Shown here in pieces: positions 9,416 through 55,465 of a stretch of DNA of 64,000 nt. The position numbers and the translations under genes are program-made. Below the pieces are notes generated by a model. That model made no database searches and was not told where the DNA came from. It worked only from the letters and a program-made list of their open reading frames with translations. Source of the stretch: a virus; the IMG/VR virus record IMGVR_UViG_3300008952_000004, positions 125,714-189,713 of that record; one strand, given 5' to 3'. Within the stretch, counting starts at the first letter, position 1. Each line of letters begins with the position of its first letter.

Positions 9416-9675
9416 GTTTTAAGAGAAAAATAAAAAGAAAGCAGGAAAAGGAAGCCAACAAACAACTTAAAAAAGATATTGCACAGAAGGTGAATATGTT
9501 TGATAAATTACCAGATGAGTGCAGTGCCTGTCAAAAGGGATTTGATAAAAAGGATCGTGAAATGGTTATGAGTTGGAACGTGGTGGTTAGAGAACAAGAG
9601 AAAATTGTTAGATTATATTGCCCAGAGTGTTGGGGAAAAGCAAAAAGTATTATTAAGGAGTTACAAGATGCATGA
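9412..9675 (+). CDS. Hypothetical protein with CxxC...CxxC zinc site
   Basis: CSAC and CPEC pairs, basic N-terminus. Confidence 0.6.
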   Translation: MSFKRKIKRKQEKEANKQLKKDIAQKVNMFDKLPDECSACQKGFDKKDREMVMSWNVVVREQEKIVRLYCPECWGKAKSIIKELQDA

Positions 9676-10687
9676 GGCTTTGACATATGATGATGTATTG
9701 TTGGTACCTCAATATTCCGATATTGAGAGCCGAAAGGAAGTTGACTTATCAAATTATTTAGAGGCAGACCTCAAACTGAATATGCCTATTATTTCTAGTC
9801 CCATGGACACCGTTACAGAGGTGGATATGGCACGTGCAATGGGGATGTCAGGCGGTTTAGGGATCGTACATCGCTATAATAATATTGGAAAGCAGTCTGA
9901 AATGGTTTTTCATTCTGCCGACGAAGGCTGGACCGTAGGAGCCGCTATTGGCATGACGGGGGATTATCTAAAGCGAGCAGAGTCGCTTGTTGAGCACGGT
10001 GCACGAATTCTATGTGTTGACGTTGCTCACGGGCACCATGCCATGATGGAACGTTGCCTTAAAACTTTAAAAGACCGGTTTGGTGAAGACGTTCATATTA
10101 TGGCGGGAAATGTCGCCACGAGGGTTGGCTACGAGGCATTAGCTTCTTGGGGCGCTGACTCGGTGCGTTGTAATATTGGCGGAGGTTCTATTTGCTCAAC
10201 TAGAATCCAGACAGGGCACGGCATTCCTGGTTTGCAAACTATTTTTGAATGTGCTTCTGCCGGATTGGACGTGCCCATCATCGCTGACGGAGGAATTAAA
10301 AACTCGGGAGATATAGCTAAGGCTCTTGGCGCGGGTGCTGACTTCGTTATGTTAGGCTCCCTTCTTGCGGGCACAGACGAGTCGCCTGGAATGCTGCTTG
10401 TCGATTCTTCTGGAAAGAAGCAAAAAATTTATAGAGGTATGGCTAGTCACGAAGCACAAAAGGACTGGCGAGGTAAAATGACGTCAGCACCAGAAGGTGT
10501 AACCACATCAATCCCATACAAGGGGTCTGTCTTATCCGTGCTGGGAGATCTCGCTATGGGTGTCCGCAGTGGCTTTTCCTATACCGGGGCGCGTACAGTT
10601 TTAGAATTTCAGACTAAGGCTAAATTCATTAGGCAGACTGGAGCATCTCAAGTGGAGAGCGCTGCTCATATTTATAAGAGAACATAA
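9668..10687 (+). CDS. guaB: IMP dehydrogenase / GMP reductase family (no CBS domains)
   Basis: ALTYDDVLLVP, SSPMDTVTE, DVAHGH, IGGGSICSTR catalytic Cys, IADGGI, YRGMAS, PEG; likely start ATG 9668; IMPDH versus GMPR not resolved. Confidence 0.85.
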   Translation: MHEALTYDDVLLVPQYSDIESRKEVDLSNYLEADLKLNMPIISSPMDTVTEVDMARAMGMSGGLGIVHRYNNIGKQSEMVFHSADEGWTVGAAIGMTGDYLKRAESLVEHGARILCVDVAHGHHAMMERCLKTLKDRFGEDVHIMAGNVATRVGYEALASWGADSVRCNIGGGSICSTRIQTGHGIPGLQTIFECASAGLDVPIIADGGIKNSGDIAKALGAGADFVMLGSLLAGTDESPGMLLVDSSGKKQKIYRGMASHEAQKDWRGKMTSAPEGVTTSIPYKGSVLSVLGDLAMGVRSGFSYTGARTVLEFQTKAKFIRQTGASQVESAAHIYKRT

Positions 10688-15113: not shown

Positions 15114-16568
15114 ATGACGAAAAAGATTAGTGTGTTCCGCGAGCACGATGCGAAATATTTTAAAGATTATCTTGCTGGTATCATTCGAGAAGTGATTCGC
15201 GAACAGGAGCCGGACACTGCGTCCATTGAGCAGATTGCGTCCGACGCTACAGCAGCAGTTGGAAAAGCAGTTGAAGACTTGCAGATGGGCGAGTTCGACG
15301 AATCAGCCGTTGATATTAGCGGCAATAATGTTACAATTAGCGTGCCAACCAATAAAGGCAGGGCTGAACTGGCTGAGTATATTAAAGCAGCCCTTGAGAA
15401 ACATGCGTCTGGGGCGCCCGTGACCCCTTTAAAAGGCTCCAGCGGCTTTCCGATTGGGTATCGGATTAAAGGCGGAGTGTCCGTACAAATGAAGCCCCAG
15501 AAAGGAGCAGGCGTGCGCAACAAAGGCGACGTCGCGGAGGGCATCTTGGGCGCCGCAGTCGCCGCTAGTTTTCTTAGCGGAGATCAGCAGGTTTCAGCAG
15601 CGGAGGCTGAGGCACTGCTGGAAGAACTGGCAACACAGCCGGATACCAACGACAGCGAACGACAGACCTCAAAGGCTCTAACTAAAAGAGTGGAGCGCGA
15701 TGACGGTACCGTTGATGAGATTACTTTAGATATCCGATTGGGGAAAGTAAACTTTGACGATTTGATGGACCCGAGAAAGCGCGGTGAGTTAGTCTCACTT
15801 TTTAAATCTTCGGCAGCATATGCCAACTCTGGCGAGGTATTAGAAGCTTCGCAAGCAATCGCAGTTGATAATAACTCAAGCAAGATCACTGTTCTATCGG
15901 ATGGCGTCGGCGACCAAAAGGGCACGAAGGTCGATGTTCGTATTTTTATGGACGGTAAGGAAATTCCCATAGGTAAAATCTCTTTGAAAGCTGGTTCAAC
16001 AAAACAGTTGGGGCAGATTGGAAAAACTTGGGAAGCCATGGCAGGCGACAAGGGTATGTTTAATGTGATGTTTGGTGTCCAACCCGATCCGTCGCTGGAA
16101 GAAGAGTGGGTCAAGGTTTCTACCGACCCAGCATTAAGAAATACAGAAAACATCAAGACAGTGGCATACAAAATATATGAAGACGCCGCCAAAAAAATAA
16201 AATCATATCTGGCTGGGGACGACCCCGAGCAAGAGTTAGAGTTTTTTGAAACCCTAGCGCGAGGCGTTCGGTATCAGGCTGTTTTAGAAGAGCAGGGTGT
16301 TAGGCTCATTCAGCTATCAAAAGGTACATTTAAAGTTTTAGATTTTGATAAATTGGAAGAAGTGTTAACAAATATTGATTTAGATGTTAGACTACAGAAA
16401 GAAAGTTCTAAGGGGGCAATATCTCCGAAGATTATTATTTTTGATAAAACGTCGGGCGGAAGTCTCGTCTCGATGCGAGTTAAGGTTGAAGGCGGCGGCA
16501 AGACGATACGACATTATATTGAAAAGGAAGACGGCTTGGTTGAGTTAATCAACGTCGCAAAAAAATAA
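15114..16568 (+). CDS. Large hypothetical protein with possible PD-(D/E)xK nuclease-like motif
   Basis: GDVAEG helix, GTKVDV..KISLKAG; N-terminus contains IIREVIRE. Confidence 0.5.
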   Translation: MTKKISVFREHDAKYFKDYLAGIIREVIREQEPDTASIEQIASDATAAVGKAVEDLQMGEFDESAVDISGNNVTISVPTNKGRAELAEYIKAALEKHASGAPVTPLKGSSGFPIGYRIKGGVSVQMKPQKGAGVRNKGDVAEGILGAAVAASFLSGDQQVSAAEAEALLEELATQPDTNDSERQTSKALTKRVERDDGTVDEITLDIRLGKVNFDDLMDPRKRGELVSLFKSSAAYANSGEVLEASQAIAVDNNSSKITVLSDGVGDQKGTKVDVRIFMDGKEIPIGKISLKAGSTKQLGQIGKTWEAMAGDKGMFNVMFGVQPDPSLEEEWVKVSTDPALRNTENIKTVAYKIYEDAAKKIKSYLAGDDPEQELEFFETLARGVRYQAVLEEQGVRLIQLSKGTFKVLDFDKLEEVLTNIDLDVRLQKESSKGAISPKIIIFDKTSGGSLVSMRVKVEGGGKTIRHYIEKEDGLVELINVAKK

Positions 16569-16579
16569 AAGAGGTTCAA

Positions 16580-18166
16580 TTGAGTAAGGTTTATAGTTCG
16601 AATAAAGTTCTTCAAGAGAAGATTTTAAAAGGTATTAATAAGTTGGCAGACAACGTTGCCAGCACCCTTGGTCCCAAGGGAAGAAACGTTATCCTTCATC
16701 AGAAGGGCAAGCGACCAATCATCACAAAGGATGGTGTGACTGTAGCGGAGTTTGTGGATTTGAAGGATCCGGTTGAAAATGCTACTGCACAAATTTTAAA
16801 GCAAGCCTCGGCACAAACAAACTCGGTTGCGGGCGATGGCACCACAACAGCTACAGTTTTGGCACGTGCAATATATACTGAAGCTTATAAATATTTGTCT
16901 TCTGATACCAGCCCAGTTGAATTAAAGAGGGGAATCGACAAAGCAGTTGAAGAGTTAGTTTTGAAACTAAAAGAAATTTCCATTCCAATCTCTAGTGTCG
17001 AGGATATTGAAAATATTGCTCGAATTTCTGCCAATGGAGATACAGCTATTGGAAAAATGATTGCCACGGCAGTTGATCAAGTTGGTAAAAATGGCGCAAT
17101 CACTGTAGAGGAGGCTCGCTCCCTAGATTCTAGCTTGGAGGTTGAAGAGGGTTTTCGATTCGACGGTGGCTTCTTTTCAACTCAGTTTATGACTGACGAG
17201 CGACGTGGTGTGGGTTCTTATAACGATGCACTAGTACTTGTCACTGATCAAAAACTGTCAACGGTTGATGAGCTAATGCCGGCACTAGAGCTAACTGCTC
17301 GCGAGTCGCGCCCTTTGATTATTGTTGCAGAAGAGGTTGAAGGGCAAGCATTGGCGGCATTAATCATGAATGCAGTGCGTGGCACTTTAAAAGTGATGGC
17401 TGTTAAAGCTCCAAGATACGGCGAAGAGCGAAGAAACATTTTAAAAGATTTGGCTCTGTCAATTGGTGCTTCGTTCGTGAGCAGAGAATCTGGAAAAAAG
17501 CTTCGTGATGCACAATTAAATGATTTAGGTCAGGTGAAAACTGTGGAGGCTTCAAAATATAATACAACTTTTGTTGGCGGTAGCGGCGAAAGAGCCAAGA
17601 TAGAAGAAAAAATTGAGTTGCTAAAAGAAGAAATTAAACAAACAGAAAATATTCATGAATGTGAACGTCTTCAAGAGCGTGTCACAAGGTTGGCAAGCGG
17701 AGTAGCCGTGATTAGAGTTGGCGCTGCAACAGAGGTGGAGATGATTGAGAAAAAGCACAGGGTCGAGGATGCTCTAGAGGCTGTACGAGCCGCCCGAATG
17801 GATGGTATTGTACCGGGTGGCGGCTGCGCGCTACTAGCAGCGCGAGAGTTGGCGCAGATCACAATTGAACACCCAGAACAAGCCCACGGAGCCCAAGCAG
17901 TGCTTGAGGCGGTGTCTGCTCCTATATGTCAAATGGCAGAAAATGCAGGTTTGTCACCAGATTTGACATTGGCTAGGGTTATGGAAATACAAAAAAAGAA
18001 CTCCTCAGCCACGATTGGCTTCAACTTTCGTACTGGAAAGATGGAAAGCCTTCAGGAATCTGGAATCATTGATCCTGTGCTCGTGACCATATCTGCGCTT
18101 CAAAACGCTGCTTCGGTTGCTTCAACTCTTTTAACCACAAATTATGCAATCATAGAAGAGGAATGA
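16580..18166 (+). CDS. groEL: Chaperonin GroEL
   Basis: TLGPKGRNV, ITKDGVT, AGDGTTTATVLA, KAPRYG, RVEDAL, GIVPGGG, GIIDP; TTG start; lacks the C-terminal GGM tail. Confidence 0.95.
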   Translation: MSKVYSSNKVLQEKILKGINKLADNVASTLGPKGRNVILHQKGKRPIITKDGVTVAEFVDLKDPVENATAQILKQASAQTNSVAGDGTTTATVLARAIYTEAYKYLSSDTSPVELKRGIDKAVEELVLKLKEISIPISSVEDIENIARISANGDTAIGKMIATAVDQVGKNGAITVEEARSLDSSLEVEEGFRFDGGFFSTQFMTDERRGVGSYNDALVLVTDQKLSTVDELMPALELTARESRPLIIVAEEVEGQALAALIMNAVRGTLKVMAVKAPRYGEERRNILKDLALSIGASFVSRESGKKLRDAQLNDLGQVKTVEASKYNTTFVGGSGERAKIEEKIELLKEEIKQTENIHECERLQERVTRLASGVAVIRVGAATEVEMIEKKHRVEDALEAVRAARMDGIVPGGGCALLAARELAQITIEHPEQAHGAQAVLEAVSAPICQMAENAGLSPDLTLARVMEIQKKNSSATIGFNFRTGKMESLQESGIIDPVLVTISALQNAASVASTLLTTNYAIIEEE

Positions 18167-21259: not shown

Positions 21260-21478
21260 ATGAAAGATGATTATCAACCAAAATACTCTGTTGGGTATAG
21301 CTATAGAATCGGTAATGTATTATACATAATTGAGAAAATTAAAGATGGGATGTATTATGAAAGAAGCTCGAATTTTATTGGCTATAGTTGTGTTCGTTGT
21401 GATGTGTTTGATTCCAATCACGGTTCTAGCGTAGCAGTATCTAGGGGCATCGGGCTACCATCCCATCCGGAGGCTTAA
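21260..21478 (+). CDS. Hypothetical protein
   Basis: 72 aa ORF in operon. Confidence 0.45.
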   Translation: MKDDYQPKYSVGYSYRIGNVLYIIEKIKDGMYYERSSNFIGYSCVRCDVFDSNHGSSVAVSRGIGLPSHPEA

Positions 21479-22463: not shown

Positions 22464-22531
22464 AAGCCATCAACACCGCTATTAGGGTGTAATGGCTTTT
22501 GTAACTTGCTTTAAAAGGAGAAAACAAAATG
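22464..22531 (+). promoter_or_regulatory. ROSE-like RNA thermometer candidate in hsp20 5' UTR
   Basis: 5' hairpin AAGCCAT..ACACC/GGTGT..ATGGCTT plus CUUGCUU able to pair with the AAGGAG SD with a bulged G. Confidence 0.55.
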
Positions 22532-22981
22532 ACAAATGCAGCACTTACAACCTATTTCAATAGACGACCGAGCCTTGTTGGCGAGAATGTCTTTAATGAG
22601 TTTTTTAACGGAATGTTTCAAGACATTCCAACTTTGGTCAAGCAGACCACACAGGGATACCCCGTCACTGATATCTATGAGGACGAGACTGGTAACACAG
22701 TCTTAGAATTCGCCTTAGCTGGCTTTCAAAAGGAGAATGTGCATGTCACAGTAAATCCAGAGAAAAATAGAATTGACGTCAGTTCTGATAGTCATGGTGA
22801 TGAGGACAGTTCAGCGCTGAAAACTCGTAGGATTGCTCGGAGAGCTTTTCATAAGACGTTTGTAAATTATAATAATAATTTGGATTTAGCAAAGGTATCT
22901 GCGTCGTTCGAGAATGGGTTGTTGCGCGTTACAGTGCCGGTACGCCCGGAAGCTGAACCGTTAGTTGTTAAAATTAAATAA
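22529..22981 (+). CDS. Small heat shock protein Hsp20/IbpA family
   Basis: GYPVTDI, LEFALAGF, RRIARRAFHKTF, ASFENGLLRVTVP alpha-crystallin motifs. Confidence 0.92.
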   Translation: MTNAALTTYFNRRPSLVGENVFNEFFNGMFQDIPTLVKQTTQGYPVTDIYEDETGNTVLEFALAGFQKENVHVTVNPEKNRIDVSSDSHGDEDSSALKTRRIARRAFHKTFVNYNNNLDLAKVSASFENGLLRVTVPVRPEAEPLVVKIK

Positions 22982-23007: not shown

Positions 23008-23045
23008 AAAGGGGGACGGAATCCGTCCCCCTTTTGTGTTTTTAC
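23008..23045 (+). terminator. Intrinsic terminator
   Basis: GGGGGACGG-AAT-CCGTCCCCC stem followed by TTTTGTGTTTTT. Confidence 0.85.
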
Positions 23046-23088: not shown

Positions 23089-23352
23089 GTGATGATAATA
23101 ACAAAACAAGTCTTAAAAGAGATGATAGTCGAAGAGATACAAAAAAGTCTTCTAAGCGAAGAGATAGCCGAAGAGGCAGATCCCGCTCAGGCATATGTTG
23201 ATTGGATCGTTGCGATTCAAGAAGCTGCTACTGAAGCTTTAAAAGAAGTTGAGAGCGGCACCGAACCTTATGAAGCTGCATTTAGCTCTCGACTAAACCA
23301 ATTGGCGTTCGGCTTAACTGGTGAAGATTTTTACCACCACTACTTTAGCTAG
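23089..23352 (+). CDS. Hypothetical protein with class B leader
   Basis: (M)IITKQVLKEMIVEE; AGGAG SD. Confidence 0.65.
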   Translation: MMIITKQVLKEMIVEEIQKSLLSEEIAEEADPAQAYVDWIVAIQEAATEALKEVESGTEPYEAAFSSRLNQLAFGLTGEDFYHHYFS

Positions 23353-23363
23353 GAGAATAAATA

Positions 23364-24296
23364 ATGGGAAAGAAAAGACTTACAGAAATTGCAGTTAGGG
23401 AGTGGGCTCAGTATTTGCGCGAGGCAGAATCTGCCACTGCTGCTGCCAGTGAGGCAGAAGTCACTGCGACTACTGATTTATCTGATTTGCATAAAAAAGC
23501 AAAAGATGCTCACAAAAATCGGGGTAAGGCTCTACAGGACCTAGCCTCTGCTGCTGAAGTTGAGAAAAAGGTTGCAACTGACGCCCAGGCAATTGAGGGC
23601 GATCGCGCTAATGCCTATAAAGCTGCCATTACGGCAAGGGACACCTCCAGTGATTTGCGTGATCAAAACAGCAAAGCAAACAAGAAAAAAGAAGATATTT
23701 TAAAAAGGTCAGCCGATGCACAAGAAAAGAAGGCGAAGGCTGATGAACTTAGCGCCAAAGCCGCAGAAGCAATTGCAAAATCGGCTGAAGAAGTGGCTGA
23801 TCTTGAAAACACAATGGCGAAAATTAACTCTCAATTTGAAAAAGCAAATCAAGAATTAAATAAAGCATCTGAAATGTTTGCAGATCTGGATAATCAAGCC
23901 GCAGACATATCAAAGCAGAAAGCCGCTGCTGCTGAGCAGCGCAAATCTGCTCAAGAGCAAGCAGCGACCGCTGCTGAGGAAGCAAGCAAGTTGAGCGATG
24001 AGTTCCAAAAGGCACATCAAGCATCTGCTGACGCTGCCGAAGATACAGCAACAGCTATAGAGGATGATGAAGAAGCCGAAGAAGCGGAAGAAGAAGCCGA
24101 AGAAGAGGAAGAAGAAGAGGAAGAAGAAGAGAAAGAAGATGAGGAGCAAGAGAGGGAAGAAAAAGAAGCAGATCGGCAAGCGGCAGACGAAGAAGCTGCG
24201 GAAGAAGCCGAGGAAGAAGCTGCGGAAGAAGCCGAGGAAGAAGCTGAGGAGCCTGATCTAAAGGATATTAAGGAGATATTTAAGAGATATCTATAG
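23364..24296 (+). CDS. Ala/Glu-rich coiled-coil protein with acidic tail
   Basis: AGGAG SD; N-terminal LTEIAVREWAQYLRE; poly-Glu C-terminus. Confidence 0.75.
   Translation: MGKKRLTEIAVREWAQYLREAESATAAASEAEVTATTDLSDLHKKAKDAHKNRGKALQDLASAAEVEKKVATDAQAIEGDRANAYKAAITARDTSSDLRDQNSKANKKKEDILKRSADAQEKKAKADELSAKAAEAIAKSAEEVADLENTMAKINSQFEKANQELNKASEMFADLDNQAADISKQKAAAAEQRKSAQEQAATAAEEASKLSDEFQKAHQASADAAEDTATAIEDDEEAEEAEEEAEEEEEEEEEEEKEDEEQEREEKEADRQAADEEAAEEAEEEAAEEAEEEAEEPDLKDIKEIFKRYL
24189..24246 (+). repeat. 24-bp tandem repeat (about 2.4 copies) encoding EEAAEEAE
   Basis: GAAGAAGCTGCGGAAGAAGCCGAG repeated. Confidence 0.85.
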
Positions 24297-24302
24297 AGGT
24301 GA

Positions 24303-24611
24303 TTGATGCGACGTCGTGCAACAAACCAATATAAAAATTTAAAATATTTAGTATATTTTTTACTCATGGTTGCATTTTGGACAATGCTATTGTGTGGTCC
24401 AATGGTCGCTAATGGAAAAACCGCACCGCCAAATTCTGCCAGATCTAAATTTTATGACTTTAGTGAGCAGTTGATCGACGGTGAAATAAAAAAGCCAACT
24501 GCTCTATATACAGACGCCCGCGCCCGCGCAAAATTCGAACGACTTTTAAGACTCAAGAGATCATTTATGAGAGAATTATTCAATACAGCAAAAGAAAAAG
24601 TTTTTAAGTAA
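24303..24611 (+). CDS. CglF/GltF-like (myxobacterial gliding motility) exported protein
   Basis: Signal/TM segment then DFSEQLIDGEIKKPTALY..R..FERLLRLKRSFMREL, matching the recalled CglF pattern DFxDxxVEGELxKPxxxY..RxxxxFxxLIxxRxxFxxEL. Confidence 0.65.
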   Translation: MMRRRATNQYKNLKYLVYFLLMVAFWTMLLCGPMVANGKTAPPNSARSKFYDFSEQLIDGEIKKPTALYTDARARAKFERLLRLKRSFMRELFNTAKEKVFK

Positions 24612-24627
24612 CGCAAGGAGATAATAA

Positions 24628-24747
24628 ATGTCTAAATATGACGATTTGATGCATAGTTATACTGTTGCCAAAGCGGCTGAAAATATTGATTGGTCCTCTG
24701 AATCTGGCACCACCAAGTTAATCGCTTGCACTTATCACGCGGGGTAG
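24628..24747 (+). CDS. Small hypothetical protein (39 aa, absent from ORF track)
   Basis: AAGGAG SD, ATG 24628, TAG ending 24747. Confidence 0.5.
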   Translation: MSKYDDLMHSYTVAKAAENIDWSSESGTTKLIACTYHAG

Positions 24748-24751
24748 AAAA

Positions 24752-24928
24752 ATGAAATTGCCTGACATGAAACAAGTTTTAATCGCCTGCGTGGGTATCA
24801 ATGTTGCCCTCCTTGCCGGAGGTTTAGCCTTGGAGGACTACCAACTCGTAACACTGGCAGTGCTTTCAGGAGCTTCTTGCTTGCTGGGCATCCGTGTTAG
24901 AAGGCAGATCGACGAGGAGCAGGAATGA
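24752..24928 (+). CDS. Small two-TM membrane protein (58 aa, absent from ORF track)
   Basis: MKLPDMKQVLIACVGINVALLAGGLAL..LVTLAVLSGASCLLGIR; stop overlaps next ATG. Confidence 0.55.
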   Translation: MKLPDMKQVLIACVGINVALLAGGLALEDYQLVTLAVLSGASCLLGIRVRRQIDEEQE

Positions 24929-25530
24929 AACTTATAATGGAAAGCTTCAGGAAGTTTATTAACGAGGCTCCAATGGAGTTGTCTAAAACGACAGGTCTTT
25001 ATGTGGAAGATTCTTTTATCGCTGTTTATGATTATTATGCGATGAGGGCATCAATTAAAAGATCTTTGGGCAGCGAAGAGCACATGGAGAAAGTAGGTAA
25101 AGCGATTCTCGGTGCTATGCGCTTGGGCTTTCGCTCTGGAAATATGGTTGTTGAAGAAGTATGGGCACAGAAAGGCTACGGACCACTCCTGTACAGGCTT
25201 GCTCTTGAACAGTCTTCGCAGCACGGGTTAGCCCCATCCAGAGTCAAAGGCGAGGTTTCCGATGCTGCGTCAAGCGTGTGGAAGGAATTCTATGACGGCA
25301 AGGGTGCCGAGTACGCAAAACACAAACCGGCAGAAGAACAAATCCACGGGATAGAGTGGCTGGATGCTGTTTATTATCCCACCAGTACAGTTCAAGGTAA
25401 GGACACATCCGTTGCTTTGAATAAAAAAGTTTTTAACAGAACCTCTGATCCTTACGAGGAGTTGGAAACGAATTTTCTTGAGATTGCCCACTCAAAGTTG
25501 CGAGACGAAATGTCAAAGGTGGGGTACTGA
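24925..25530 (+). CDS. Class A leader + GNAT-like domain
   Basis: MKLIMESFRKFINE; AQKGYGPLLYRLAL..VSDAASSVW resembles the acetyl-CoA-binding loop. Confidence 0.6.
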   Translation: MKLIMESFRKFINEAPMELSKTTGLYVEDSFIAVYDYYAMRASIKRSLGSEEHMEKVGKAILGAMRLGFRSGNMVVEEVWAQKGYGPLLYRLALEQSSQHGLAPSRVKGEVSDAASSVWKEFYDGKGAEYAKHKPAEEQIHGIEWLDAVYYPTSTVQGKDTSVALNKKVFNRTSDPYEELETNFLEIAHSKLRDEMSKVGY

Positions 25531-26594
25531 TGAAGCTAATAATGGAAAACTGGCGCAGGCACTTGAATGAGATTACCTCTGTTCCGCAGGAGCATATGCA
25601 AGCTTTTAAGGATGCTATAGCCGATTCCAAATTTTGGACGCTCCCACACACTGAAGATGAAATAGACATAGGACCAGCAGAAGAGCTTACCACCCCCGCT
25701 GTTGAGGCTTTGGCTAATTCTTTAAACGATGTTGCCGAAGCCTTGGGAACAGAAATATATTTTCTTTTTACCACGATAAGCGAAGAGGAATATGCGTTGG
25801 GACCGGATAGTCCATATCCCGGCTACCCAAACAACTGGCTGATGCAGGGTGCATATCAGGGACCACAAAAGGGAAAGCATGTGGTTTGGTTTCAATTTCG
25901 ACCGCTAGCTGAAGACTTCGAGATGGCTAAGCTTAATTCCGAGGCTCTGGTTAAGGTGTTATCTCAAACTTTAAATCATGAGCTTGTGCACTATTATCAG
26001 CTTAAAAAGCAAGCTGCAAACAAAGGGATCAGCGACGAAGAAGCATGGGCTGAGCTTGAAAAGGATCCAAAGCAATTGCCACAAGACGGCGAGGAGCAGA
26101 CTTACCTTGGCTTGCACAACGAGATAGATGCATATGCCCATGAAGCAGCAGAGCAACTGTTGGACAAACACTCGCCAGAAGAGGCGCTGGATATAATCCG
26201 AAAGCTGTCGGCAGATAACTTAGAAAAATATCCAGAAATATCTTCGGTTGTTAAAAGATATGTGGAAGTCTTCAAGAGTGATCCAAAAACACTGGACAAA
26301 TTCCGAAAGAAGCTGGTTAAACAGATTGAAAGCCAGTCGGGTATGCAGGAAATATTTAATAATTGGCGAGGGTATTTAAAAGAAATGATTGATTTGGACA
26401 TTGAAGTAGGGGATGTGATCCTCGGTGGGAAATATAAAAATAAAAGAATGATCGTCAAGGACATCGGCGAAGATGAGTTGGGGCAGCCAACCGTAAATGG
26501 GAAACCAATTTTAAAATTCAGGATTGAGAAATTTTTGCCCGACGAAAAAAAGAGCAAGAAGACACTTGATGCGGAGAAGGAGAAAGACGAATGA
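25530..26594 (+). CDS. Class A leader + HExxH metallopeptidase-like domain + internal leader + C-terminal beta module
   Basis: MKLIMENWRRHLNE; LNHELVHYYQ..NEIDAYA; internal MQEIFNNWRGYLKE at 26343. Confidence 0.7.
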   Translation: MKLIMENWRRHLNEITSVPQEHMQAFKDAIADSKFWTLPHTEDEIDIGPAEELTTPAVEALANSLNDVAEALGTEIYFLFTTISEEEYALGPDSPYPGYPNNWLMQGAYQGPQKGKHVVWFQFRPLAEDFEMAKLNSEALVKVLSQTLNHELVHYYQLKKQAANKGISDEEAWAELEKDPKQLPQDGEEQTYLGLHNEIDAYAHEAAEQLLDKHSPEEALDIIRKLSADNLEKYPEISSVVKRYVEVFKSDPKTLDKFRKKLVKQIESQSGMQEIFNNWRGYLKEMIDLDIEVGDVILGGKYKNKRMIVKDIGEDELGQPTVNGKPILKFRIEKFLPDEKKSKKTLDAEKEKDE

Positions 26595-26881
26595 AATTTC
26601 TAATGGAAAGATGGAAAAGGTTTGTGAACGAGAACGAAGTCTACGACCAGAAGAGCTACGACTTGGGCTTGTCCAACGAAGACGGCACCAGAACTCAATC
26701 CGGCAAGCTTCTAGGGAATATCGCAAAGAGAGGACGAGAAGGTTATACCCCATCTGCGGGGCAAAAAACGATTCTTTCCATTCTCAGTGATGAAGGCTTG
26801 ATCAGTTATGGACTTCACCCTATGGGCGGCTCAAGAGCAGTCATCACTGATAAAGGACTAGACGCATTGTCTGGTATATAG
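26591..26881 (+). CDS. Class A leader + small domain (possible winged helix)
   Basis: MKFLMERWKRFVNE; LSILSDEGLI..ITDKGL. Confidence 0.6.
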   Translation: MKFLMERWKRFVNENEVYDQKSYDLGLSNEDGTRTQSGKLLGNIAKRGREGYTPSAGQKTILSILSDEGLISYGLHPMGGSRAVITDKGLDALSGI

Positions 26882-26898
26882 AAGAAGGAAAAAGAAGA

Positions 26899-27351
26899 AT
26901 GAAACTTATAATGGAAAACTTTAGGAAATTTATTAAAGAGGCACAATGGGGAGGCTTTACTGGAGGCGCCGCGCCATTAGATGAACCAGCACCAGACAGC
27001 GGAGTTGTCCCTCCCGAACAGCTAAGAAAGATGTGGGAGATCTATATTGAAATGGGTATGAGCCCCGAAGAGATTTTACAAACCCCAGAGTTTGTTGAAG
27101 CTGGGATTACCGATCCCGAGCAATTGCAAGAAGCAATCACTCTTGATATTGAAGTCGGAGATATTGTTCTCGGCGGCAAGTATAAAAATAAAAGAATCGA
27201 GGTCAAAGAGATTGGCACAGATGATATTGGTCAGCCGACCATCAATGGCAAATCGCTTTTAAAATTTAGAATTGAGAAACAACTACCAGACAGCAAAAAG
27301 AGCAAAAAAACGCTTGATGCGGAAAAAAAGGAAGAGGGGTCAAAAGAATGA
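26899..27351 (+). CDS. Class A leader + C-terminal module paralogous to that of 25530-26594
   Basis: MKLIMENFRKFIKE; LDIEVGDIVLGGKYKNKR..GQPTING..LKFRIEK. Confidence 0.75.
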   Translation: MKLIMENFRKFIKEAQWGGFTGGAAPLDEPAPDSGVVPPEQLRKMWEIYIEMGMSPEEILQTPEFVEAGITDPEQLQEAITLDIEVGDIVLGGKYKNKRIEVKEIGTDDIGQPTINGKSLLKFRIEKQLPDSKKSKKTLDAEKKEEGSKE

Positions 27352-27929
27352 AGAAAATACTAACAGAGTGGCGTAAATATGCCATGAAAGAAGCTTACTA
27401 TGGGGGCGTACCGGGCGAACCAGAAACGCCAGCAGGGTATGGAGGTGCGCTTGACGCAGCGAAGGCTCAGCAACACTTGAGCGATGAGATCGATGACCTA
27501 GTTCGTTTGGGCAAGATAGATATTAATGACTTGTCCGTTGAAACCCTCAGAGCAAATCAAGAAATCCCGTGGGATAAATTTCAAGCCATTGACGATGAAG
27601 TTTTAGGAGATATCATTCGAGACTATCAGAGGAAAAAGAAATTTTATAGAGAGAGTTTGCAAGAAGAACCGCGTGGAGTCTCAGACTTACTTAAGTCGGC
27701 AGAGATGATCCGGTGGCACCTTGGAGCGCTTACAAATGATGCGGGGGACTTGGCTATGCTCACGCAACAACATCAAGAAACCATTGATGAGCTTTTAGCA
27801 GGGCAGAATTTTGAAGAAGCTGTCAAAGCCCTTGAACCCTATATTGAAAAGCTGGGACCATTGGCTCAGGACATCGCGACTGCCCATAAAGATCTTCAGC
27901 TTTTGAAAGACTCACTCAAGGACGGCTAG
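27348..27929 (+). CDS. Class A leader + helical hypothetical
   Basis: MKKILTEWRKYAMKE. Confidence 0.65.
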   Translation: MKKILTEWRKYAMKEAYYGGVPGEPETPAGYGGALDAAKAQQHLSDEIDDLVRLGKIDINDLSVETLRANQEIPWDKFQAIDDEVLGDIIRDYQRKKKFYRESLQEEPRGVSDLLKSAEMIRWHLGALTNDAGDLAMLTQQHQETIDELLAGQNFEEAVKALEPYIEKLGPLAQDIATAHKDLQLLKDSLKDG

Positions 27930-27932
27930 CCC

Positions 27933-28592
27933 ATGAAAGATATAATGGAACAATGGAGAGAGTACTCCAGCGGAGACGCGACACAAACCCAATTAGATGA
28001 AGGGTTGATCGACGACGCCATGTCATGGGTCAAAGAGAAGGGCGCCGCAGCTAAAGAGGCGACCATAGATTTCTTTCAGAAGCTCAAGGTTGAGCTTGGT
28101 GAAACTAAGGAAGGCGCGCTTTTATTGGCTAAAATGGTGCGAGGCGAACAGCTAACGCCAGAAGAAGAACAAGCACTCACAACACAGGCTCAGGACATCG
28201 GCAAGGGTCTTCCACTGTTGGCAATATTTGTCTTGCCGGGAGGTGGCATAGCTGCTGCAGCGTTGGTGAAGTTAGCAAAGAAGTTTGGCGTCGACTTGAT
28301 GCCCACAGCATTTGCTGATGAGACGAATGAAAGCCCTATAAAAGAACGAGCAGTCAACGTGGGACCTATCTGGCGAAAATTTAAACCAGAGTTGCAAGCT
28401 GCCATGGCTGAGTTCATGACGTCATACCTCGCAAACCAGAATGAGGTGGAAGGCTTAGAAGATCTCAATCAAGAGCGTCTGGTCACGGCTATGACAACGG
28501 CTGCTACGTCTGAAGTGTCCAAGGTGTGTCTGGTCGTGAAAGCAACGCCAACCAAACACGGGATTCTGAACGCTGGGAAACAAAATAAGTGA
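27933..28592 (+). CDS. Class A-like leader + LETM1-like membrane segment
   Basis: MKDIMEQWREY; LTPEEE..DIGKGLPLLAIFVLPGG..LMPTAF resembles the bacterial LETM1-related motif. Confidence 0.6.
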   Translation: MKDIMEQWREYSSGDATQTQLDEGLIDDAMSWVKEKGAAAKEATIDFFQKLKVELGETKEGALLLAKMVRGEQLTPEEEQALTTQAQDIGKGLPLLAIFVLPGGGIAAAALVKLAKKFGVDLMPTAFADETNESPIKERAVNVGPIWRKFKPELQAAMAEFMTSYLANQNEVEGLEDLNQERLVTAMTTAATSEVSKVCLVVKATPTKHGILNAGKQNK

Positions 28593-29155
28593 AATTAATA
28601 ATGGAAAGTTGGCGAGGCTTCTTGAACGAGGGATCCAAAGAAACCATTGTAGCATTTTTCGGTTCCTCTGGCTCTGGTAAGAGTCACGCTAAGAAATACT
28701 TTGTAGATCAAGGCTGGCGCGAGATTAGAACCAACTCCACCCGCCCGCCAAGAGGGGCGGAGGATAAAGAATATAATTTCTGGTCCGAAGAAGAGTTCAA
28801 AGAACTCATGGACGCTGGCAAGCTCGTTAATACGAATGAATATCAAGGAAACTGGTATGGTACTCACGTTGATGATCTTAACGAGCCGGGTTCAGCCGTG
28901 ATGCTTACAGACACAACCAGCTTGGACAAGCTCAAGCAGGTAGCCGGGGATCGCCTTACCCTTGTGTACACCGCCCCACCTTCAGACGCAGAGATGGAAA
29001 AGAGACACAAGGATCGTGGCACACCAGAACGACTGGCAGTTGCAGCCGCTGAGAAGGAACGGGATACTGCCGAACTCGCGGATCGCGGCGACGTACTGAC
29101 CGTCAACAACCAACAAGAAATTGAAGATTTAGAGCAGCAATTGCGGGCTTTTTAG
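28589..29155 (+). CDS. gmk: Class A leader + guanylate kinase-like protein
   Basis: MKLIMESWRGFLNE; GSSGSGKS, STRPPRGAE..EYNF, EYQGNWYGT GMP-binding motifs. Confidence 0.8.
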   Translation: MKLIMESWRGFLNEGSKETIVAFFGSSGSGKSHAKKYFVDQGWREIRTNSTRPPRGAEDKEYNFWSEEEFKELMDAGKLVNTNEYQGNWYGTHVDDLNEPGSAVMLTDTTSLDKLKQVAGDRLTLVYTAPPSDAEMEKRHKDRGTPERLAVAAAEKERDTAELADRGDVLTVNNQQEIEDLEQQLRAF

Positions 29156-32219: not shown

Positions 32220-33173
32220 ATGGAAAACATAAATACTATCTTTAGAGATCGTGGTGGATACGTTGGATTGGTGGATCGCGTTGGCAGCGACTTAACCATA
32301 CTTAACAATCCCCATTCGTCTCCCGACAAAAAACTTGAAATAACCGATGCAGACCATTATAAAATTGAGCGTTTGATCGATCGAGAGCGTGATGACGTGC
32401 TAGCTGGTTGCAGTGCGATGTTTAAGATTCGCGCCCCGCTCTTTGTTGCTCGCGAACATACGTCTTTAGCTGATTGGAATTGCACCGAACTAGACAAATA
32501 TCTTGCAACTCCAAACACAAAGTTTTACGAACCCGGTGCTTATAGAGCGCAGGTTCGACATGGGTTCGATGAAGAAGTAATTAATCCCGTCTTGCAAGAT
32601 AAAGTTAGACTAGCTAGATTTCGAGTCTATCGCACCACTCGTGCATTAAGTATGCATCACGAAATGTCGTTGCAGCTATACAAAAATATGGTACAAGCGG
32701 GCATATGCCAAGAACAGGCTATGGCAACGTTGCCGCAAAACGTCTATGTCGAATATTACGCTGCTGCTAGTTTAGACAATATTTTAAAGTTTACAAACTT
32801 AATCACTGATGAAAAATCTTTACCAGAATTGAGAGAGATCGCGAAAGCCGTACTAAATATAATTAGAGAAGAGTTTCCTGTGACTACACACAAATGGGAA
32901 AGCTCTGTTCGTAGAAAAAAAGCTGAAGTCGCTCAAAGATTTAATAAACTAAGTCAATTGATTGATGCTAGTGAGAAACTGCACCAAGCACAAGTTGAAC
33001 AAATTATAAAAATTAAAGAGCGCTTCCTTCATGGCGAGGAGAAAAATAAAGATGAAAATGCCGAAAATAACATATCAAAAGGGCAGCAAGGGTCAGGAAG
33101 TTCGGAGGCTCCAAAAAGCACTGGGCGTAAAGCCCGATGGAGTTTTTGGAAAAAGAACAGGAGAAGCGGTTAA
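32220..33173 (+). CDS. ThyX (FAD-dependent thymidylate synthase)-like protein with degenerate active site
   Basis: GYVGLVD..GSDLTI, FKIRAPLFVARE, GICQEQA..LPQ, ELREIAKAV; the RHRx7S motif is missing. Confidence 0.7.
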   Translation: MENINTIFRDRGGYVGLVDRVGSDLTILNNPHSSPDKKLEITDADHYKIERLIDRERDDVLAGCSAMFKIRAPLFVAREHTSLADWNCTELDKYLATPNTKFYEPGAYRAQVRHGFDEEVINPVLQDKVRLARFRVYRTTRALSMHHEMSLQLYKNMVQAGICQEQAMATLPQNVYVEYYAAASLDNILKFTNLITDEKSLPELREIAKAVLNIIREEFPVTTHKWESSVRRKKAEVAQRFNKLSQLIDASEKLHQAQVEQIIKIKERFLHGEEKNKDENAENNISKGQQGSGSSEAPKSTGRKARWSFWKKNRRSG

Positions 33174-38625: not shown

Positions 38626-40017
38626 ATGAGTGATGATACTCCAAAGTCTACTTTGTGCTGTTCTTTTTGCGGAAAGAGCAGGAAACAGGTTATGACGCTT
38701 ATTGCAGGTACCCGCGTTTATATTTGTGATGAATGTATTGACCTCTGTGCTGAGGTTGTGGAAGACGAGCGCGAGCGAAAAGATACGACTCATCAAAAGG
38801 AAGATTGGATACTTCCGACCCCTAAAGAAATATTTGACCAACTTGAAGAGTATGTTATTGGTCAAACTGAGGCTAAAAGATTATTATCTGTAGCCGTCTA
38901 TAATCATTATAAGCGCGCTGCAATCAACCACAAAGTGAAAGCTGCCGAACGAAAGAACAAAAAACGTCATAGAAAAAAGAAGGTTGACCCAAACCATATT
39001 GATCTAGAGAAGTCCAATATCCTTCTGCTGGGACCAACAGGTTCTGGTAAGACATTACTAGCAAAAACGCTAGCGAAGATCTTGAATGTTCCGTTTGCAA
39101 TTGCTGATGCGACGTCCTTGACCGAAGCGGGATATGTGGGCGAAGATGTTGAGAGTATTTTACATTATTTGGTTCAAAACGCAAACGATGATGTGTCTCG
39201 TGCAGAGCGCGGCATTGTCTACATCGATGAAATTGACAAGATAACTAGAAAGGGCGAAAATACCTCAACAACGCGAGATGTTTCAGGCGAAGGTGTACAG
39301 CAGGCTCTTCTTAAAATTATAGAGGGTACTGTTGCTAGCGTATCTCCGAAGGGCGGACGAAAGCATCCAAATGCAGAATCTATCAAAGTTGATACGAATA
39401 ATATTTTATTTATTTGCGGCGGTGCCTTTGGCGGAATTGAGGATCACGTTGCTGAGCGTTTTAAAGCAAAAGGTGGGCAGGCACTTGGCTTCCTCAAGGG
39501 AGAAGCTGAAGATGGACAGGAACAGATCAACATCAAAGATATTGATAAGGACAGAGTGTATGAATTGGTCGAGCCATCTGATTTGGTTTCCTATGGTCTA
39601 ATATCAGAGTTCATTGGGAGAATCCCTGTTTTAGCTCCGCTTGAAACACTCAGCGAAGAAGCGTTCTTAAAAATCTTAACCGAACCACGTGGCGCCATCA
39701 CGAAACAGTATCAAAAACTCTTCGAAATCGATGGTATAGAGTTGTCTTTTACAAAGGATGCACTTGCCGCCGTTGCAAAAGAGGCTATAAAGAGGGAAAC
39801 TGGTGCGCGTGGACTGCGGGCAATATTTGAATCAGCCATGGCAGATGTTATGTTTGATGCCCCAACAGATAAAGAAAATATTGAGAAAATAACCATTACA
39901 AAGGAGGTGATCACAGATAAGGCAGAGCCCGATATAATTTGTGTATCACCAGACCAGAACGATATGGGCGATATTGAATCAGACCCAGACGTCATCGTAG
40001 AAATTAAAAAAAGTTAA
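38626..40017 (+). CDS. clpX: ATP-dependent Clp protease ATPase subunit ClpX
   Basis: CSFCG..ICDEC zinc-binding domain, [36 protein letters not shown] loop, TGARGLR. Confidence 0.97.
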
Positions 40018-48152: not shown

Positions 48153-48773
48153 ATGTCATACTACCCACCCACGGTGATTGAGAAGACAAAAGACGGCGAA
48201 AGAAGTTACGATATCTATTCAAGACTTTTAAAAGACCGGATTGTTTTCTTGGGTACGCCGGTTGATAACAACGTTGCGAACTCAATCATCGCACAGATGC
48301 TTTTCTTGGAGGAAAGTGATCCGGAAAAGGATATTTTATTTTATATTAATTCGCCCGGTGGCTCTGTGACGGCTGGGCTGGCTATTTTGGATACGATGAA
48401 TTTCGTGCGCCCGGATGTTGCAACGGTGTGCATCGGGCAGGCAGCATCGATGGGCGCGCTCTTGTTGTGCTCGGGTGCTAAAGGCAAAAGGGTAATATTA
48501 CCAAATGCCCGCGTGCTGATTCACCAACCTTTGGGTGGTGCTCAAGGGCAAGCTAGTGACATTGAAATTCAAGCCAATGAGATATTGCGAATGAAAAAGC
48601 GCTTGAATGAAATTATGTCCAAGGCGACTGGGCAACCAATTAAGAAAATTAAACTGGACACTGACCGTGACTATATTATGGAAGCGGAACAGGCGGTTGA
48701 ATATGGCTTGGTTGATAAGGTTGTAGAGAACAATCATCGACCTGTGAACAATGAAGAAGATGAAGATCGGTGA
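48153..48773 (+). CDS. clpP: ATP-dependent Clp protease proteolytic subunit (canonical)
   Basis: [47 protein letters not shown]. Confidence 0.97.
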
Positions 48774-53012: not shown

Positions 53013-54089
53013 ATGGCTGTTGATTTTAAAACTTTTAATCAGGTTGCCCCGCTTGTCGCGGCTGTAAAGAAACCTATTCTTCTTCGCGGACGTCACGGTG
53101 TTGGTAAATCTTGTGTTGTTTATCAAACTGCTGAGGCACTCGGTCTGCCTATTGTGGAGCGCCGAGCTTCTCAAATGACCGAGGGCGACCTTGTTGGTCT
53201 GCCCAGTACTGATGGTAATTGTACTACCTTTAATCCTCCTGACTGGTTTAAAGAGGCGTGTGAGCATGCCGTTGTCCTCTTCTTGGATGAGGTCGACCGT
53301 GCTACTATGGAAGTACGTCAAGGAATCTTCGAGTTGACCGACTCGCGAAAGCTAAACGGTCATGTACTTCATCCTGAGACTCTCGTCTTCGCTGCCGTCA
53401 ACGGTGGTGAGCATGGCGCGCAGTATCAGGTTGGTGAGATGGACCCAGCGGAACTCGACCGTTGGACTGTCTTTGATGTTGAGCCTACTGTTGAAGACTG
53501 GCTTAACTGGGCAAACGGGAAGGTTGATGGTGTCGTTTGGGACTTCATTAATCAGAACCGTGGTCATCTTGAGCACGTTGGGGAGTTTGAGCCTAATAAG
53601 GTTTACCCCAGTCGTCGTTCTTGGGACCGTTTGAACGAGTGCCTCATGGGAGGTACTCTTTTGGGTGAAACTATTAAGGAGAACACTGAAACCATTTATC
53701 ACCTCGCGACTGCTTTCGTTGGTTTCGAAGCTGCCGTTGCTTTCACTGATTTCGTCAAGACCTACGAGAAGCAGGTAACTGTCGAAATGATTCTGAAGCA
53801 AGGCAAAATCGAAGCGACCAACGATTTCGGCATCAACGAGCATACAGCCCTCGTTGAGAAGTTGGAAGCAGAAAAGGTCTTTGAGACTGAGCTTCCCGCT
53901 GAGCAGATTGCGAACGTCGCAGCCTACTTCGTAACTCTCCCGAGTGAAGTAGCAATGAAGCTGTGGACCGTGATGGGTGAGGGCGATATCCAGAATACAC
54001 TATCGCTCCACCAGAGTGAAGTAAATGGAGTCGCAGTTTCGACTTTCTTGGTTGAACTGCTGACCGGTGACACTGCCGACAATAGTTAA
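53013..54089 (+). CDS. MoxR/AAA_5-type AAA+ ATPase
   Basis: GRHGVGKS Walker A, FLDEVDRA Walker B, AAVN sensor I, MDPAELDRW Arg finger, PSRRSW. Confidence 0.88.
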   Translation: MAVDFKTFNQVAPLVAAVKKPILLRGRHGVGKSCVVYQTAEALGLPIVERRASQMTEGDLVGLPSTDGNCTTFNPPDWFKEACEHAVVLFLDEVDRATMEVRQGIFELTDSRKLNGHVLHPETLVFAAVNGGEHGAQYQVGEMDPAELDRWTVFDVEPTVEDWLNWANGKVDGVVWDFINQNRGHLEHVGEFEPNKVYPSRRSWDRLNECLMGGTLLGETIKENTETIYHLATAFVGFEAAVAFTDFVKTYEKQVTVEMILKQGKIEATNDFGINEHTALVEKLEAEKVFETELPAEQIANVAAYFVTLPSEVAMKLWTVMGEGDIQNTLSLHQSEVNGVAVSTFLVELLTGDTADNS

Positions 54090-54149
54090 TTCACCTAAGT
54101 GGGGGGGAGTCAGGAAGATAAAAAAACACTGAAATGACGTGTTTTCTTC

Positions 54150-54178
54150 TTGACTTCCCCCGCGATATATGTCATAAT
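54150..54178 (+). promoter_or_regulatory. Early promoter (ATGT class)
   Basis: TTGACT-N17-CATAAT, TGn, N4-ATGT. Confidence 0.75.
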
Positions 54179-54205
54179 CATCATGTAGTCAGTTGAGAGG
54201 TACTA

Positions 54206-55465
54206 ATGACATTTGATCTGAATAAGCATGTTGCTCGTCTTTTAATGAACGAGCCTTTCTTTGCAGCGCTCTCTAGAACAGTAGATAAGAAGGTTGGTCC
54301 TATTCCAACTGCTTGTGTTCGTGTCAACCCTGACACCGCTCGTTTTGAAATGATGTATAACCCTGAGTTCCTAGCACCTCTTACTGATACGGAGTTGACT
54401 GGGATTCTCAAGCATGAGTTCTATCACTTGCTCTTCGAGCACGTTACAGGTCGTATGCCAGAAGAGGTTCGCGCTGACTTCGCGAAGTACGGCAAGTGTT
54501 GGAACTTCGCAACTGACCTCGCTATTAACTCCCACCTGATTAATGAATTGCCCGAAGGCGCGTTGATCCCTGGCGTTGCGCCATTCGAAGATCTTCCTGC
54601 TGGTCGGTCTGCTGAGTGGTACTACGAAGAATTAAAAAAGCAAGCTGAAGAGGGTGGTGATCCGGATGACGGTGAAGGTCAGGAGGGTGACGAGGGAGAA
54701 GAAGGAGAAGGTCCTGCTAACGGAGAACAGGGCGAGGGTGAAGAAAATAAAAAAGGTTCCGGTAAAGGTAAGCCTCAGACCCTTGATGACCACTCGATGT
54801 GGGGAGACACTCCTGAGACTGCACGAGAGATTGCTAAAGAGCGTCTTAAAGAAACAGTAAAGAAGGCAGCAGCGGAAGCTGCCAAAGCTGGTAGCTGGGG
54901 AAGCGTTGGCAGTGACTGTCGCCGAGACATCACTGACCGTCTGTTGACCACTAAGGTTGACTGGCGTAACGTTCTCCGTTACTTCATCAAGACAAGCCAG
55001 AAGGCTAACCGTCGCTCCACTATCAAGCGGATCAACAAGCGTTACCCTTACATTCATCCCGGTCGCAAGCAGACCCGTCAGGCTAAGATTGCTATCAGCA
55101 TTGACCAATCGGGTAGTGTTAATGACCAGATGCTTCAAGCGTTCTTCGCTGAGTTGAACAAGCTGGCTGCTCTTGCTGAGTTTACAGTGATTCCTTTTGA
55201 TACTGAAGTTGCTGAGACTAAGATCTTCACATGGAAGAAGGGCGAGAAGCGAAAGTGGGAACGTGTTGCTTGTGGTGGTACTTGCTTCGAGGCTCCAACA
55301 GACTACGTTAATAAGAATAACTTTGATGGTCATATCGTCCTAACTGATATGTGCGCTCCAAAGCCTAAGGCTAGCAAGTGTCAACGAATGTGGATGACTA
55401 CTGAGTATTACGCTAAGAACCCATACTTTAAAACTAGCGAGCGTGTTATCGGAATCGAAACTTAG
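54206..55465 (+). CDS. DUF2201-type putative metallopeptidase + VWA-like domain protein
   Basis: HEFYH, NFATDLAIN, acidic linker, DDHSMW, IDQSGS MIDAS, GGT, LTD. Confidence 0.85.
   Translation: MTFDLNKHVARLLMNEPFFAALSRTVDKKVGPIPTACVRVNPDTARFEMMYNPEFLAPLTDTELTGILKHEFYHLLFEHVTGRMPEEVRADFAKYGKCWNFATDLAINSHLINELPEGALIPGVAPFEDLPAGRSAEWYYEELKKQAEEGGDPDDGEGQEGDEGEEGEGPANGEQGEGEENKKGSGKGKPQTLDDHSMWGDTPETAREIAKERLKETVKKAAAEAAKAGSWGSVGSDCRRDITDRLLTTKVDWRNVLRYFIKTSQKANRRSTIKRINKRYPYIHPGRKQTRQAKIAISIDQSGSVNDQMLQAFFAELNKLAALAEFTVIPFDTEVAETKIFTWKKGEKRKWERVACGGTCFEAPTDYVNKNNFDGHIVLTDMCAPKPKASKCQRMWMTTEYYAKNPYFKTSERVIGIET

Follow-up and report, generated by a model that had tools for sequence, protein, structure and literature searches.

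A lone GltF/CglF-family gene in a large T4-like phage genome and its possible role as a periplasmic linker

GltF and its described counterparts

GltF, also named CglF (MXAN_4868; NCBIfam family NF033764), is the least understood subunit of the Agl-Glt machinery. In Myxococcus xanthus it comprises 89 aa, carries a signal peptide and is indispensable to gliding motility; its recruitment to focal adhesions is AglQ-dependent, and the clustering of GltD requires GltF (PMC3169522). The gene has been found solely in Myxococcales and Bdellovibrionales (Luciano et al. 2011, PMC3169522). In a published AlphaFold model, GltF is a mostly disordered bridge between the outer-membrane platform and the motor-linked periplasmic module: a strand (residues 94–111 of a 147-aa form) is laid onto the TonB-like C-terminal domain of GltG, further contacts are made to GltD, and the C-terminal helix is inserted into a crevice of GltC (PMC11761067). 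Here we describe a gene of this family that resides in a phage genome, alone and without any other glt gene.

A second machine of this type exists in M. xanthus: NfsF belongs to the Nfs spore-coat machine, a paralogue of Glt that is encoded in an operon running from nfsA to nfsH. Many Myxococcota genomes have two to three matches to the CglF family. The phage gene differs from nfsF in standing alone, and its subfamily may belong to either the Glt or the Nfs branch.

Two kinds of phage genes provide further points of comparison. Some small accessory phage proteins are aimed at the envelope or at a motility machine of the host. Tip and Aqs1 of Pseudomonas phages act on PilB and thereby switch off motility organelles against superinfection, and the small proteins that T4-type phages export, such as Sp, Imm and RI of T4, typically serve in exclusion or in the timing of lysis, the usual gain being superinfection exclusion or lysis control. 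The phage GltF resembles these proteins in being small, accessory and likely directed at such a machine but, unlike them, is a conserved homologue of a structural subunit of the machine itself. It can also be compared with cyanophage psbA, whose product (D1) replaces a short-lived host part: both genes encode a conserved, host-derived subunit of a multi-protein machine, evolve under purifying selection and have the base composition of the phage. Unlike psbA, the gene described here relates to a motility or envelope-transport machine and not to a metabolic one. Full-text literature searches yielded no report of a phage-borne GltF/CglF, only myxobacterial literature on GltF, and the term Glt is absent from a 2026 preprint on myxobacterial viruses. 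Almost no viruses are known for marine and freshwater Myxococcota.

A GltF/CglF-family gene in a phage genome

The window, i.e. the whole stretch of DNA that was analysed, comprises the final 64 kb of a 189,713-bp IMG/VR record that is rated 100% complete by CheckV. That the gene is phage-borne, as a sequence-only reading of the window had claimed, was confirmed by the record as a whole, which encodes a large terminase (TerL), a portal, a T4-type major head protein (MCP), a tail fibre, PhoH and glycosyltransferases, has a GC content of 41.6% and carries almost all of its genes on one strand. The phage is uncultured, marine and T4-like. Among cultured phages, the closest are Flavobacterium phage immuto (48% identity in MCP and 46% in TerL), Microcystis phage Mel-JY01 and Rhodothermus phage RM378, and MCP identities to these phages are 40–48%.

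Window positions 24303–24611 (plus strand) hold an intact open reading frame of 102 aa, matching the peptide quoted in the sequence-only reading. Its first codon, TTG at 24303, directly precedes an ATG at 24306, from which a 101-aa protein is encoded (24306–24611, plus strand, stop codon included). We consider the ATG the likelier start because the GAGG at 24296–24299 lies 6 nt upstream of it and because the public protein cluster P0001 represents the 101-aa ATG form. This GAGG belongs to a Shine-Dalgarno-like GAGGTGA (24296–24302, plus strand) read from the sequence, which overlaps the stop codon TAG (24294–24296) of the upstream gene. All residue numbers below are counted from the TTG form.

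The tight junction suggests that the gene is co-transcribed with the upstream gene at 23364–24296. Two genes (23089–24296, plus strand), encoding proteins of 87 aa and 310 aa without a Pfam family, precede the GltF gene; the 310-aa protein is very acidic, rich in Glu and Ala and likely a coiled coil. Both are kept beside the GltF gene in its nearest relatives, the viral contigs L082 and L104. Upstream of them, 3' of an Hsp20 gene, lies a strong terminator-like hairpin of the intrinsic type (23008–23034, plus strand; 12-bp stem with 8 G-C pairs and a T-run), which probably marks the start of a transcription unit spanning 23089–24611; neither promoter-like sites nor T4 late motifs were detected between this hairpin and the GltF gene. 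On the 3' side, a possible 39-codon open reading frame with a good ribosome-binding site (24629–24748) lies between the GltF gene and a gene at 24752–24928 (140 nt 3' of the former), whose 58-aa product has two predicted membrane helices, is 95% identical in L082 and could be holin-like or serve as a membrane anchor. A run of genes whose products have a common leader (MKLIME..W/FR.F..E) begins directly after the GltF unit and occupies 24925–29155.

We modelled the phage protein as a single chain with AF2, using an alignment of 25 sequences (the phage protein and 24 homologues). Residues 1–38 (24303–24416, plus strand) form a predicted Sec-type signal peptide, as judged from a basic n-region and a hydrophobic h-region, the homologue alignment and the AF2 helix (residues 4–31, pLDDT ~90). 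The predicted cleavage site after A36-N37-G38 aligns to signal-peptidase sites of the form AXA↓K in the 24 homologues. A lipoprotein was considered and ruled out, because Cys31 of the motif LLCG is not conserved among the homologues. The conserved C-terminal domain of the protein comprises 55 aa, and two of its blocks stand out. An extended segment at residues 47–64 (RSKFYDFSEQLIDGEIKK; 24441–24494, plus strand) is surrounded and occupied by invariant residues (K49, F50, Y51, D52, F53, Q56, I58, D59, G60 and P65), and is modelled as coil within an extended middle part of low confidence (residues 40–66, pLDDT ~50). Residues 67–101 (24501–24605, plus strand) form an amphipathic helix (pLDDT 76–81) with invariant F78, R80, L81, L82, L84, K85, S87, F88, L92, T95 and F101. 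With its disordered middle and long C-terminal helix, the model resembles the published picture of GltF.

Among family profiles, only NF033764 (gliding_CglF) matched the phage protein (E 2.8e-8, 33.7 bits), without a gap, over 62 positions (residues 36–97 against profile positions 25–86 of 88). The score lies below the equivalog cut-off of 90 bits. This cut-off marks close relatives of Myxococcus and not the whole family, since 226 of 301 sampled Myxococcota genomes match the profile while only 3 of the 301 pass 90 bits, and since a copy located inside a Glt-type cluster of a metagenome-assembled genome (MAG) scores 41 bits. A profile–profile comparison by hhalign, with the phage protein and its 24 homologues on one side and the ten top-scoring canonical sequences on the other, gave a probability of 96.2% (E 2.1e-9); phage residues 47–98 were aligned with the canonical C-terminal domain in 52 columns without a gap. 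These two results uphold the proposal of the sequence-only reading that the protein is a CglF/GltF homologue. We found 945 homologous protein clusters in the protein database, whereas a Pfam search returned no domain, only a sub-threshold ACBP match, and a PHROGs search gave no match. A further NF033764 match in the phage, weak (E 0.03) and lying within a frame of 425 aa, was considered as a second GltF copy and treated as noise.

Three CglF subfamilies can be told apart, and all have one motif in common. The canonical Myxococcus type reads ...YDFEDDVVEGSF.RPEGEY....R.....SLI.IRE.F.PEMLKSAEDI, the Bdellovibrionota type ...NFEDQLI.G...KP.L.YL....F....LI.LRENF.PE, and the type found in the phage and in MAGs KFYDFSEQLIDGEIKKPTALYTDAR...KFERLLRLK.SF...LF.TAKEKVFK. 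The CglF pattern that the sequence-only reading had given was essentially right. Like M. xanthus GltF (~90–100 aa, N-terminal signal peptide), the phage protein is short (101–102 aa), has a predicted signal peptide and lacks a Pfam domain; it shares with GltF/CglF the ungapped pattern [YF]-[DN]-F-x-[DE]-x-[LIV]-[IV]-x-G-x3-[KR]-P ... [LI]-[IL]-x-[LI]-[RK]-x-[SN]-F ... [ST]-A, the mostly disordered chain with a C-terminal helix, and cellular relatives located directly after gltD and gltE. It differs from the canonical protein in its low identity (~21% to the Myxococcus-type sequence) and profile score, and belongs to a distinct subfamily that the phage shares with uncultured aquatic Myxococcota. 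The phage gene itself lies outside any glt/nfs cluster, whereas cellular members of its subfamily are located within one. Compared with the GltF-like proteins of Bdellovibrionota, it falls in the same family and length class.

The gene is widespread among viruses. At least 107 IMG/VR contigs, many of them 150–200 kb long, carry a GltF copy in at least four different syntenies, always alone and never with a glt neighbour. In one arrangement, also present here, GroEL is followed at some distance by the GltF gene and two conserved genes of unknown function; in another, the GltF gene is part of a T4 replication module (SSB, UvsX, exonuclease, protease, GltF, DnaB-like helicase). The ESM Atlas clusters nearest to the phage protein are 100% viral. 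Searching 50,697 GenBank phage records with megablast and tblastn revealed no GltF homologue, and a tblastn search of the whole phage genome with all proteins neighbouring the MAG copies revealed no other glt gene. The same capsid type occurs in at least 600 IMG/VR contigs. Five related large contigs of this capsid type, one of them a 100%-complete 185-kb genome, do not contain the GltF gene, which is therefore accessory. The gene has the features of a host-derived accessory gene (moron): it sits in a real phage, has close cellular homologues, is absent from some relatives and is under purifying selection.

We compared the 55-aa mature domain of viral and MAG copies. Viral copies share on average 69% identity with one another and 63% with MAG copies, the corresponding value within the MAG group being 65%, and the two consensus sequences are nearly identical. 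GC3 is 0.34 for viral copies and 0.87 for the MAG group, so that the gene has completely adopted the base composition of the phage. The dN/dS of ~0.21 (75 viral pairs with unsaturated dS) shows that the phage copies evolve under purifying selection. A tree of 143 sequences built on 55 columns has little resolution; labels are clustered by viral or cellular origin (9 changes, as compared to 47 in shuffles), but rows of the two groups interleave. The phage protein groups weakly with copies from two MAGs of 52% GC (L024 and L040).

Cellular relatives and the probable host

A scan of 185,579 prokaryote species, represented by one genome each, yielded 84 relatives of the phage-type GltF. Nearly all of them are encoded in MAGs titled Myxococcales, Myxococcota or Deltaproteobacteria; the others come from a single Oligoflexia MAG and from a few bins that evidently carry wrong labels, and none of the relatives in this set is labelled Bacteroidota or Cyanobacteria. 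We called open reading frames around the MAG copies, clustered the neighbouring proteins and identified them with NCBIfam. At 76 MAG loci the gene is the last in an array of two outer-membrane barrels, GltC, GltD, GltE and GltF: the two barrels match OMP_myx_plus (TIGR04565) and are followed by a 640-aa GltC-like protein (NF033756, 160 bits), a 1140-aa TPR protein with repeated YbgF-like units that is GltD-like by position and size, a 515-aa GltE-like protein (NF033758, 86 bits) and the small gene. The clusters resemble the nfs operon in running through A/B-like barrels, C, D, E and F in one array, and may serve either gliding or an Nfs-like form of surface transport. By these profile matches, the best cellular homologues of the phage gene reside in Glt/Nfs-type loci. 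The sequence-only reading had named two outcomes that would speak against it, the lack of a significant profile match and best homologues outside gliding-motility loci. Both searches were run; the profile match is significant, and the closest cellular homologues lie in Glt-type loci.

Two MAG loci (L027 and L029) hold two genes that are 51–59% identical to genes of the phage and were considered as a prophage link. This link was rejected, as the two genes belong to the ordinary clpP-clpX(-lon) operon, and ClpP and ClpX are also encoded by the phage itself.

The host is probably a member of the Myxococcota, and the phage-borne GltF suggests an aquatic one. With the phage-type profile, four Myxococcota MAGs gave full-length small proteins at 103–122 bits, compared with 44 bits, inside frames of 419–453 aa, in the Oligoflexia MAG, and with no more than 48 bits in each of the 65 matching genomes among 301 of Bdellovibrionota. 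On these profile scores, Bdellovibrionota are an unlikely source or host. The sequence-only reading had proposed Myxococcota or a related predator; the first part of this proposal is supported, and the second, as far as Bdellovibrionota are concerned, is not.

The tmRNA of the phage concurs. It is encoded at genome positions 16142–16449, outside the window, and specifies the tag ANDNVEVDYALAA, which starts with ANDNVE like the tags of some Myxococcota that have a phage-type GltF. We read the tags of 33 Myxococcota and 27 Bdellovibrionota. Eight of the 33 Myxococcota tags have the 11-residue form AN[DN][DN][VL]E[LFY]ALAA (e.g. ANDNVELALAA, ANDDVELALAA), and the tag ANDNVDFALAA of the L024 genome comes close to it as a ninth; this form was found in none of the 27 Bdellovibrionota tags. 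Five of the eight tagged genomes with a phage-type GltF of at least 86 bits have this form or the L024 variant, as compared to 4 of the 25 others, which have intermediate GltF scores; this association concerns short tags, is inflated by relatedness and covers the two phyla surveyed. Beyond the universal 3' end, the phage tmRNA has one MAG match, 26 nt in the tag-coding region of G001 (the genome that holds L024), which is too short to weigh much. A literature search for published tmRNA tag strings returned none. Hence two unrelated phage genes, GltF and tmRNA, point to the same part of the Myxococcota.

Against a host in this phylum stand the GC content of the phage (42%), which is far below that of the MAG loci (48–72%), and the closest cultured phages, which infect Flavobacterium, Microcystis and Rhodothermus. 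T4-type phages often have a GC content 10–20 points lower than that of their hosts.

Two features of the cellular relatives may be added. In the Oligoflexia MAG (G004, the genome of L080), a GltF-like segment occurs in three frames (C289:1594–1764, C57:6174–6347 and C209:1692–1829) and covers the first, strand-forming half only; these frames of 419–453 aa may represent linkers that have been fused or repeated. Several Myxococcota genomes (L134, L116, L146 and L149; G134:C20, G116:C43 and G149:C11) have a pair of GltF-type genes on the same contig, separated by a few hundred bases (e.g. 103847–104089 and 104555–104803 of G134:C20), which looks like a tandem duplication of the linker.

Proposed function and alternative explanations

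The two segments used for docking in the published GltF model are the best-conserved blocks of the phage protein. Going by profile positions, residues 47–64 would be the counterpart of the GltF strand that pairs with the TonB-like domain of GltG, and the ungapped profile match makes residues ~86–100 the likely counterpart of the helix inserted into the GltC crevice. We propose that the gene product is exported to the periplasm of the infected cell and would act there as a GltF-type linker. Through the segment at about residues 47–64, it would contribute one more strand to the TonB-like C-terminal domain in a GltG-type inner-membrane protein of the host, and the C-terminal helix would sit in the crevice of a GltC-type TPR protein beneath the outer-membrane platform, so that the linker would join, or rejoin, the two sides of a Glt/Nfs-type envelope machine, that of the motor and that of the surface. 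The gene may have been taken long ago from an aquatic Myxococcota lineage and kept as a stand-alone accessory gene; our best guess is that it serves as a working replacement which keeps or re-tunes the machine once host gene expression has been shut down, in the manner of cyanophage psbA. With moderate confidence, we favour this reading of a working periplasmic linker that docks in the Glt/Nfs-type machine of the host, was acquired from aquatic Myxococcota and likely acts as a replacement. The sequences show that the protein is homologous to GltF, carries an export signal, is encoded by a phage, is widespread among phages and is kept by purifying selection, and that its cellular relatives lie in Glt loci; which proteins it docks to, in which direction it acts and which host is infected are inferred. 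We place a working replacement first because both ends of the protein, its length and its spacing are kept under purifying selection without any phage-specific departure. The limits of this reading lie in the NF033764 score far below the cut-off, the ~21% identity to the canonical protein and the accessory status of the gene.

The same conservation would be needed if the phage linker served to disable the machine. Made in excess, different molecules of this two-ended linker could occupy GltC and GltG, so that surface platform and motor would no longer be linked; gliding would then stop, or a Glt outer-membrane component used as receptor or for entry would be de-energised, resulting in superinfection exclusion. 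The sequence-only reading had proposed such a role, with the phage jamming or remodelling the Glt complex; the conserved docking segments suit a native-like linker no less than a poison. This explanation is a serious second choice behind the working replacement, although rather doubtful in absolute terms. The conservation of both docking segments is what uncoupling by excess requires, and an accessory, moron-like gene in variable regions would suit it, as would the precedents of Tip and Aqs1 and of Sp, Imm and RI, together with the fact that TonB/Tol-type systems are classic entry routes of phages. Against it, viral copies show no change of their own relative to cellular ones: the two consensus sequences hardly differ, and viral and cellular rows are mixed in the tree. 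A re-use that is unrelated to Glt appears improbable. The protein would then be a lysis regulator, or a binder of a TonB/TolA C-terminal domain in a host outside the Myxococcota, e.g. a marine member of the Bacteroidota. The T4 antiholin RI, with a signal or anchor segment and a helical periplasmic part of ~60 aa, has a similar architecture; the 58-aa protein with two membrane helices is encoded 140 nt downstream; the hosts of the closest cultured phages are not myxobacterial; and, by the general GC range of Flavobacteriia, the phage is closer to marine members of that class than to most Myxococcota MAGs. Yet in the 185,579 species genomes this GltF type is almost confined to Myxococcota-type MAGs and the one Oligoflexia MAG, an identity of 63% to cellular GltF is kept across all conserved positions, which is unexpected for a re-used protein, the tmRNA tag starts like those of Myxococcota, and the GC difference is of a kind often seen between T4-type phages and their hosts.

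An artefact, that is, host DNA mis-assembled or binned into a viral contig, or a spurious open reading frame, is refuted for practical purposes. Apart from the general risk of metagenome assemblies nothing speaks for it, whereas the GC content (36%) and GC3 (0.30) of the gene fit the phage and not the MAG copies, same-strand phage genes lie on both flanks, the neighbouring synteny is kept in the independent contigs L082 and L104, and more than 100 viral contigs hold the gene under a dN/dS of ~0.21.

A farther-reaching and less likely reading is that a large, uncultured group of marine T4-like phages infecting planktonic or particle-attached Myxococcota might use a stolen GltF to control the proton-driven envelope conveyor of the host, excluding rivals or steering surface behaviour. 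If this is true, these would be the first viruses known to encode a structural part of a bacterial gliding machine, and the gene would be a marker by which hundreds of marine phage genomes without a known host could be assigned to one. Host clues are rare for uncultured marine T4-like phages, a very large set, and the gene combined with the tmRNA tag provides one. The phage version of GltF, minimised and strongly conserved, marks the residues that matter and offers a ready tool for probing the GltC-GltG junction.

Several other genes of the window may be mentioned. GroEL, Hsp20, ClpX (with its zinc finger) and ClpP are encoded at 16580–18166, 22529–22981, 38626–40017 and 48153–48773, respectively; these quality-control genes, together with the tmRNA, suggest that the phage has its own tagging and degradation line. 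The 305-aa protein encoded at 21478–22395 matches the Mom family (PF25680, E 1.4e-12), is 76% identical in L153 and 68% in L082, and could be a DNA-modification enzyme. Nucleotide metabolism is represented by an enzyme of the IMPDH/GMP-reductase type (9605–10687), a guanylate kinase (28589–29155) and ThyX (32220–33173). At 53013–55465, a gene for an AAA_5 (MoxR-like) ATPase is followed by one for a DUF2201 metallopeptidase with a VWA-like domain, and the GC content of this region (~47%) exceeds that of the rest of the window.
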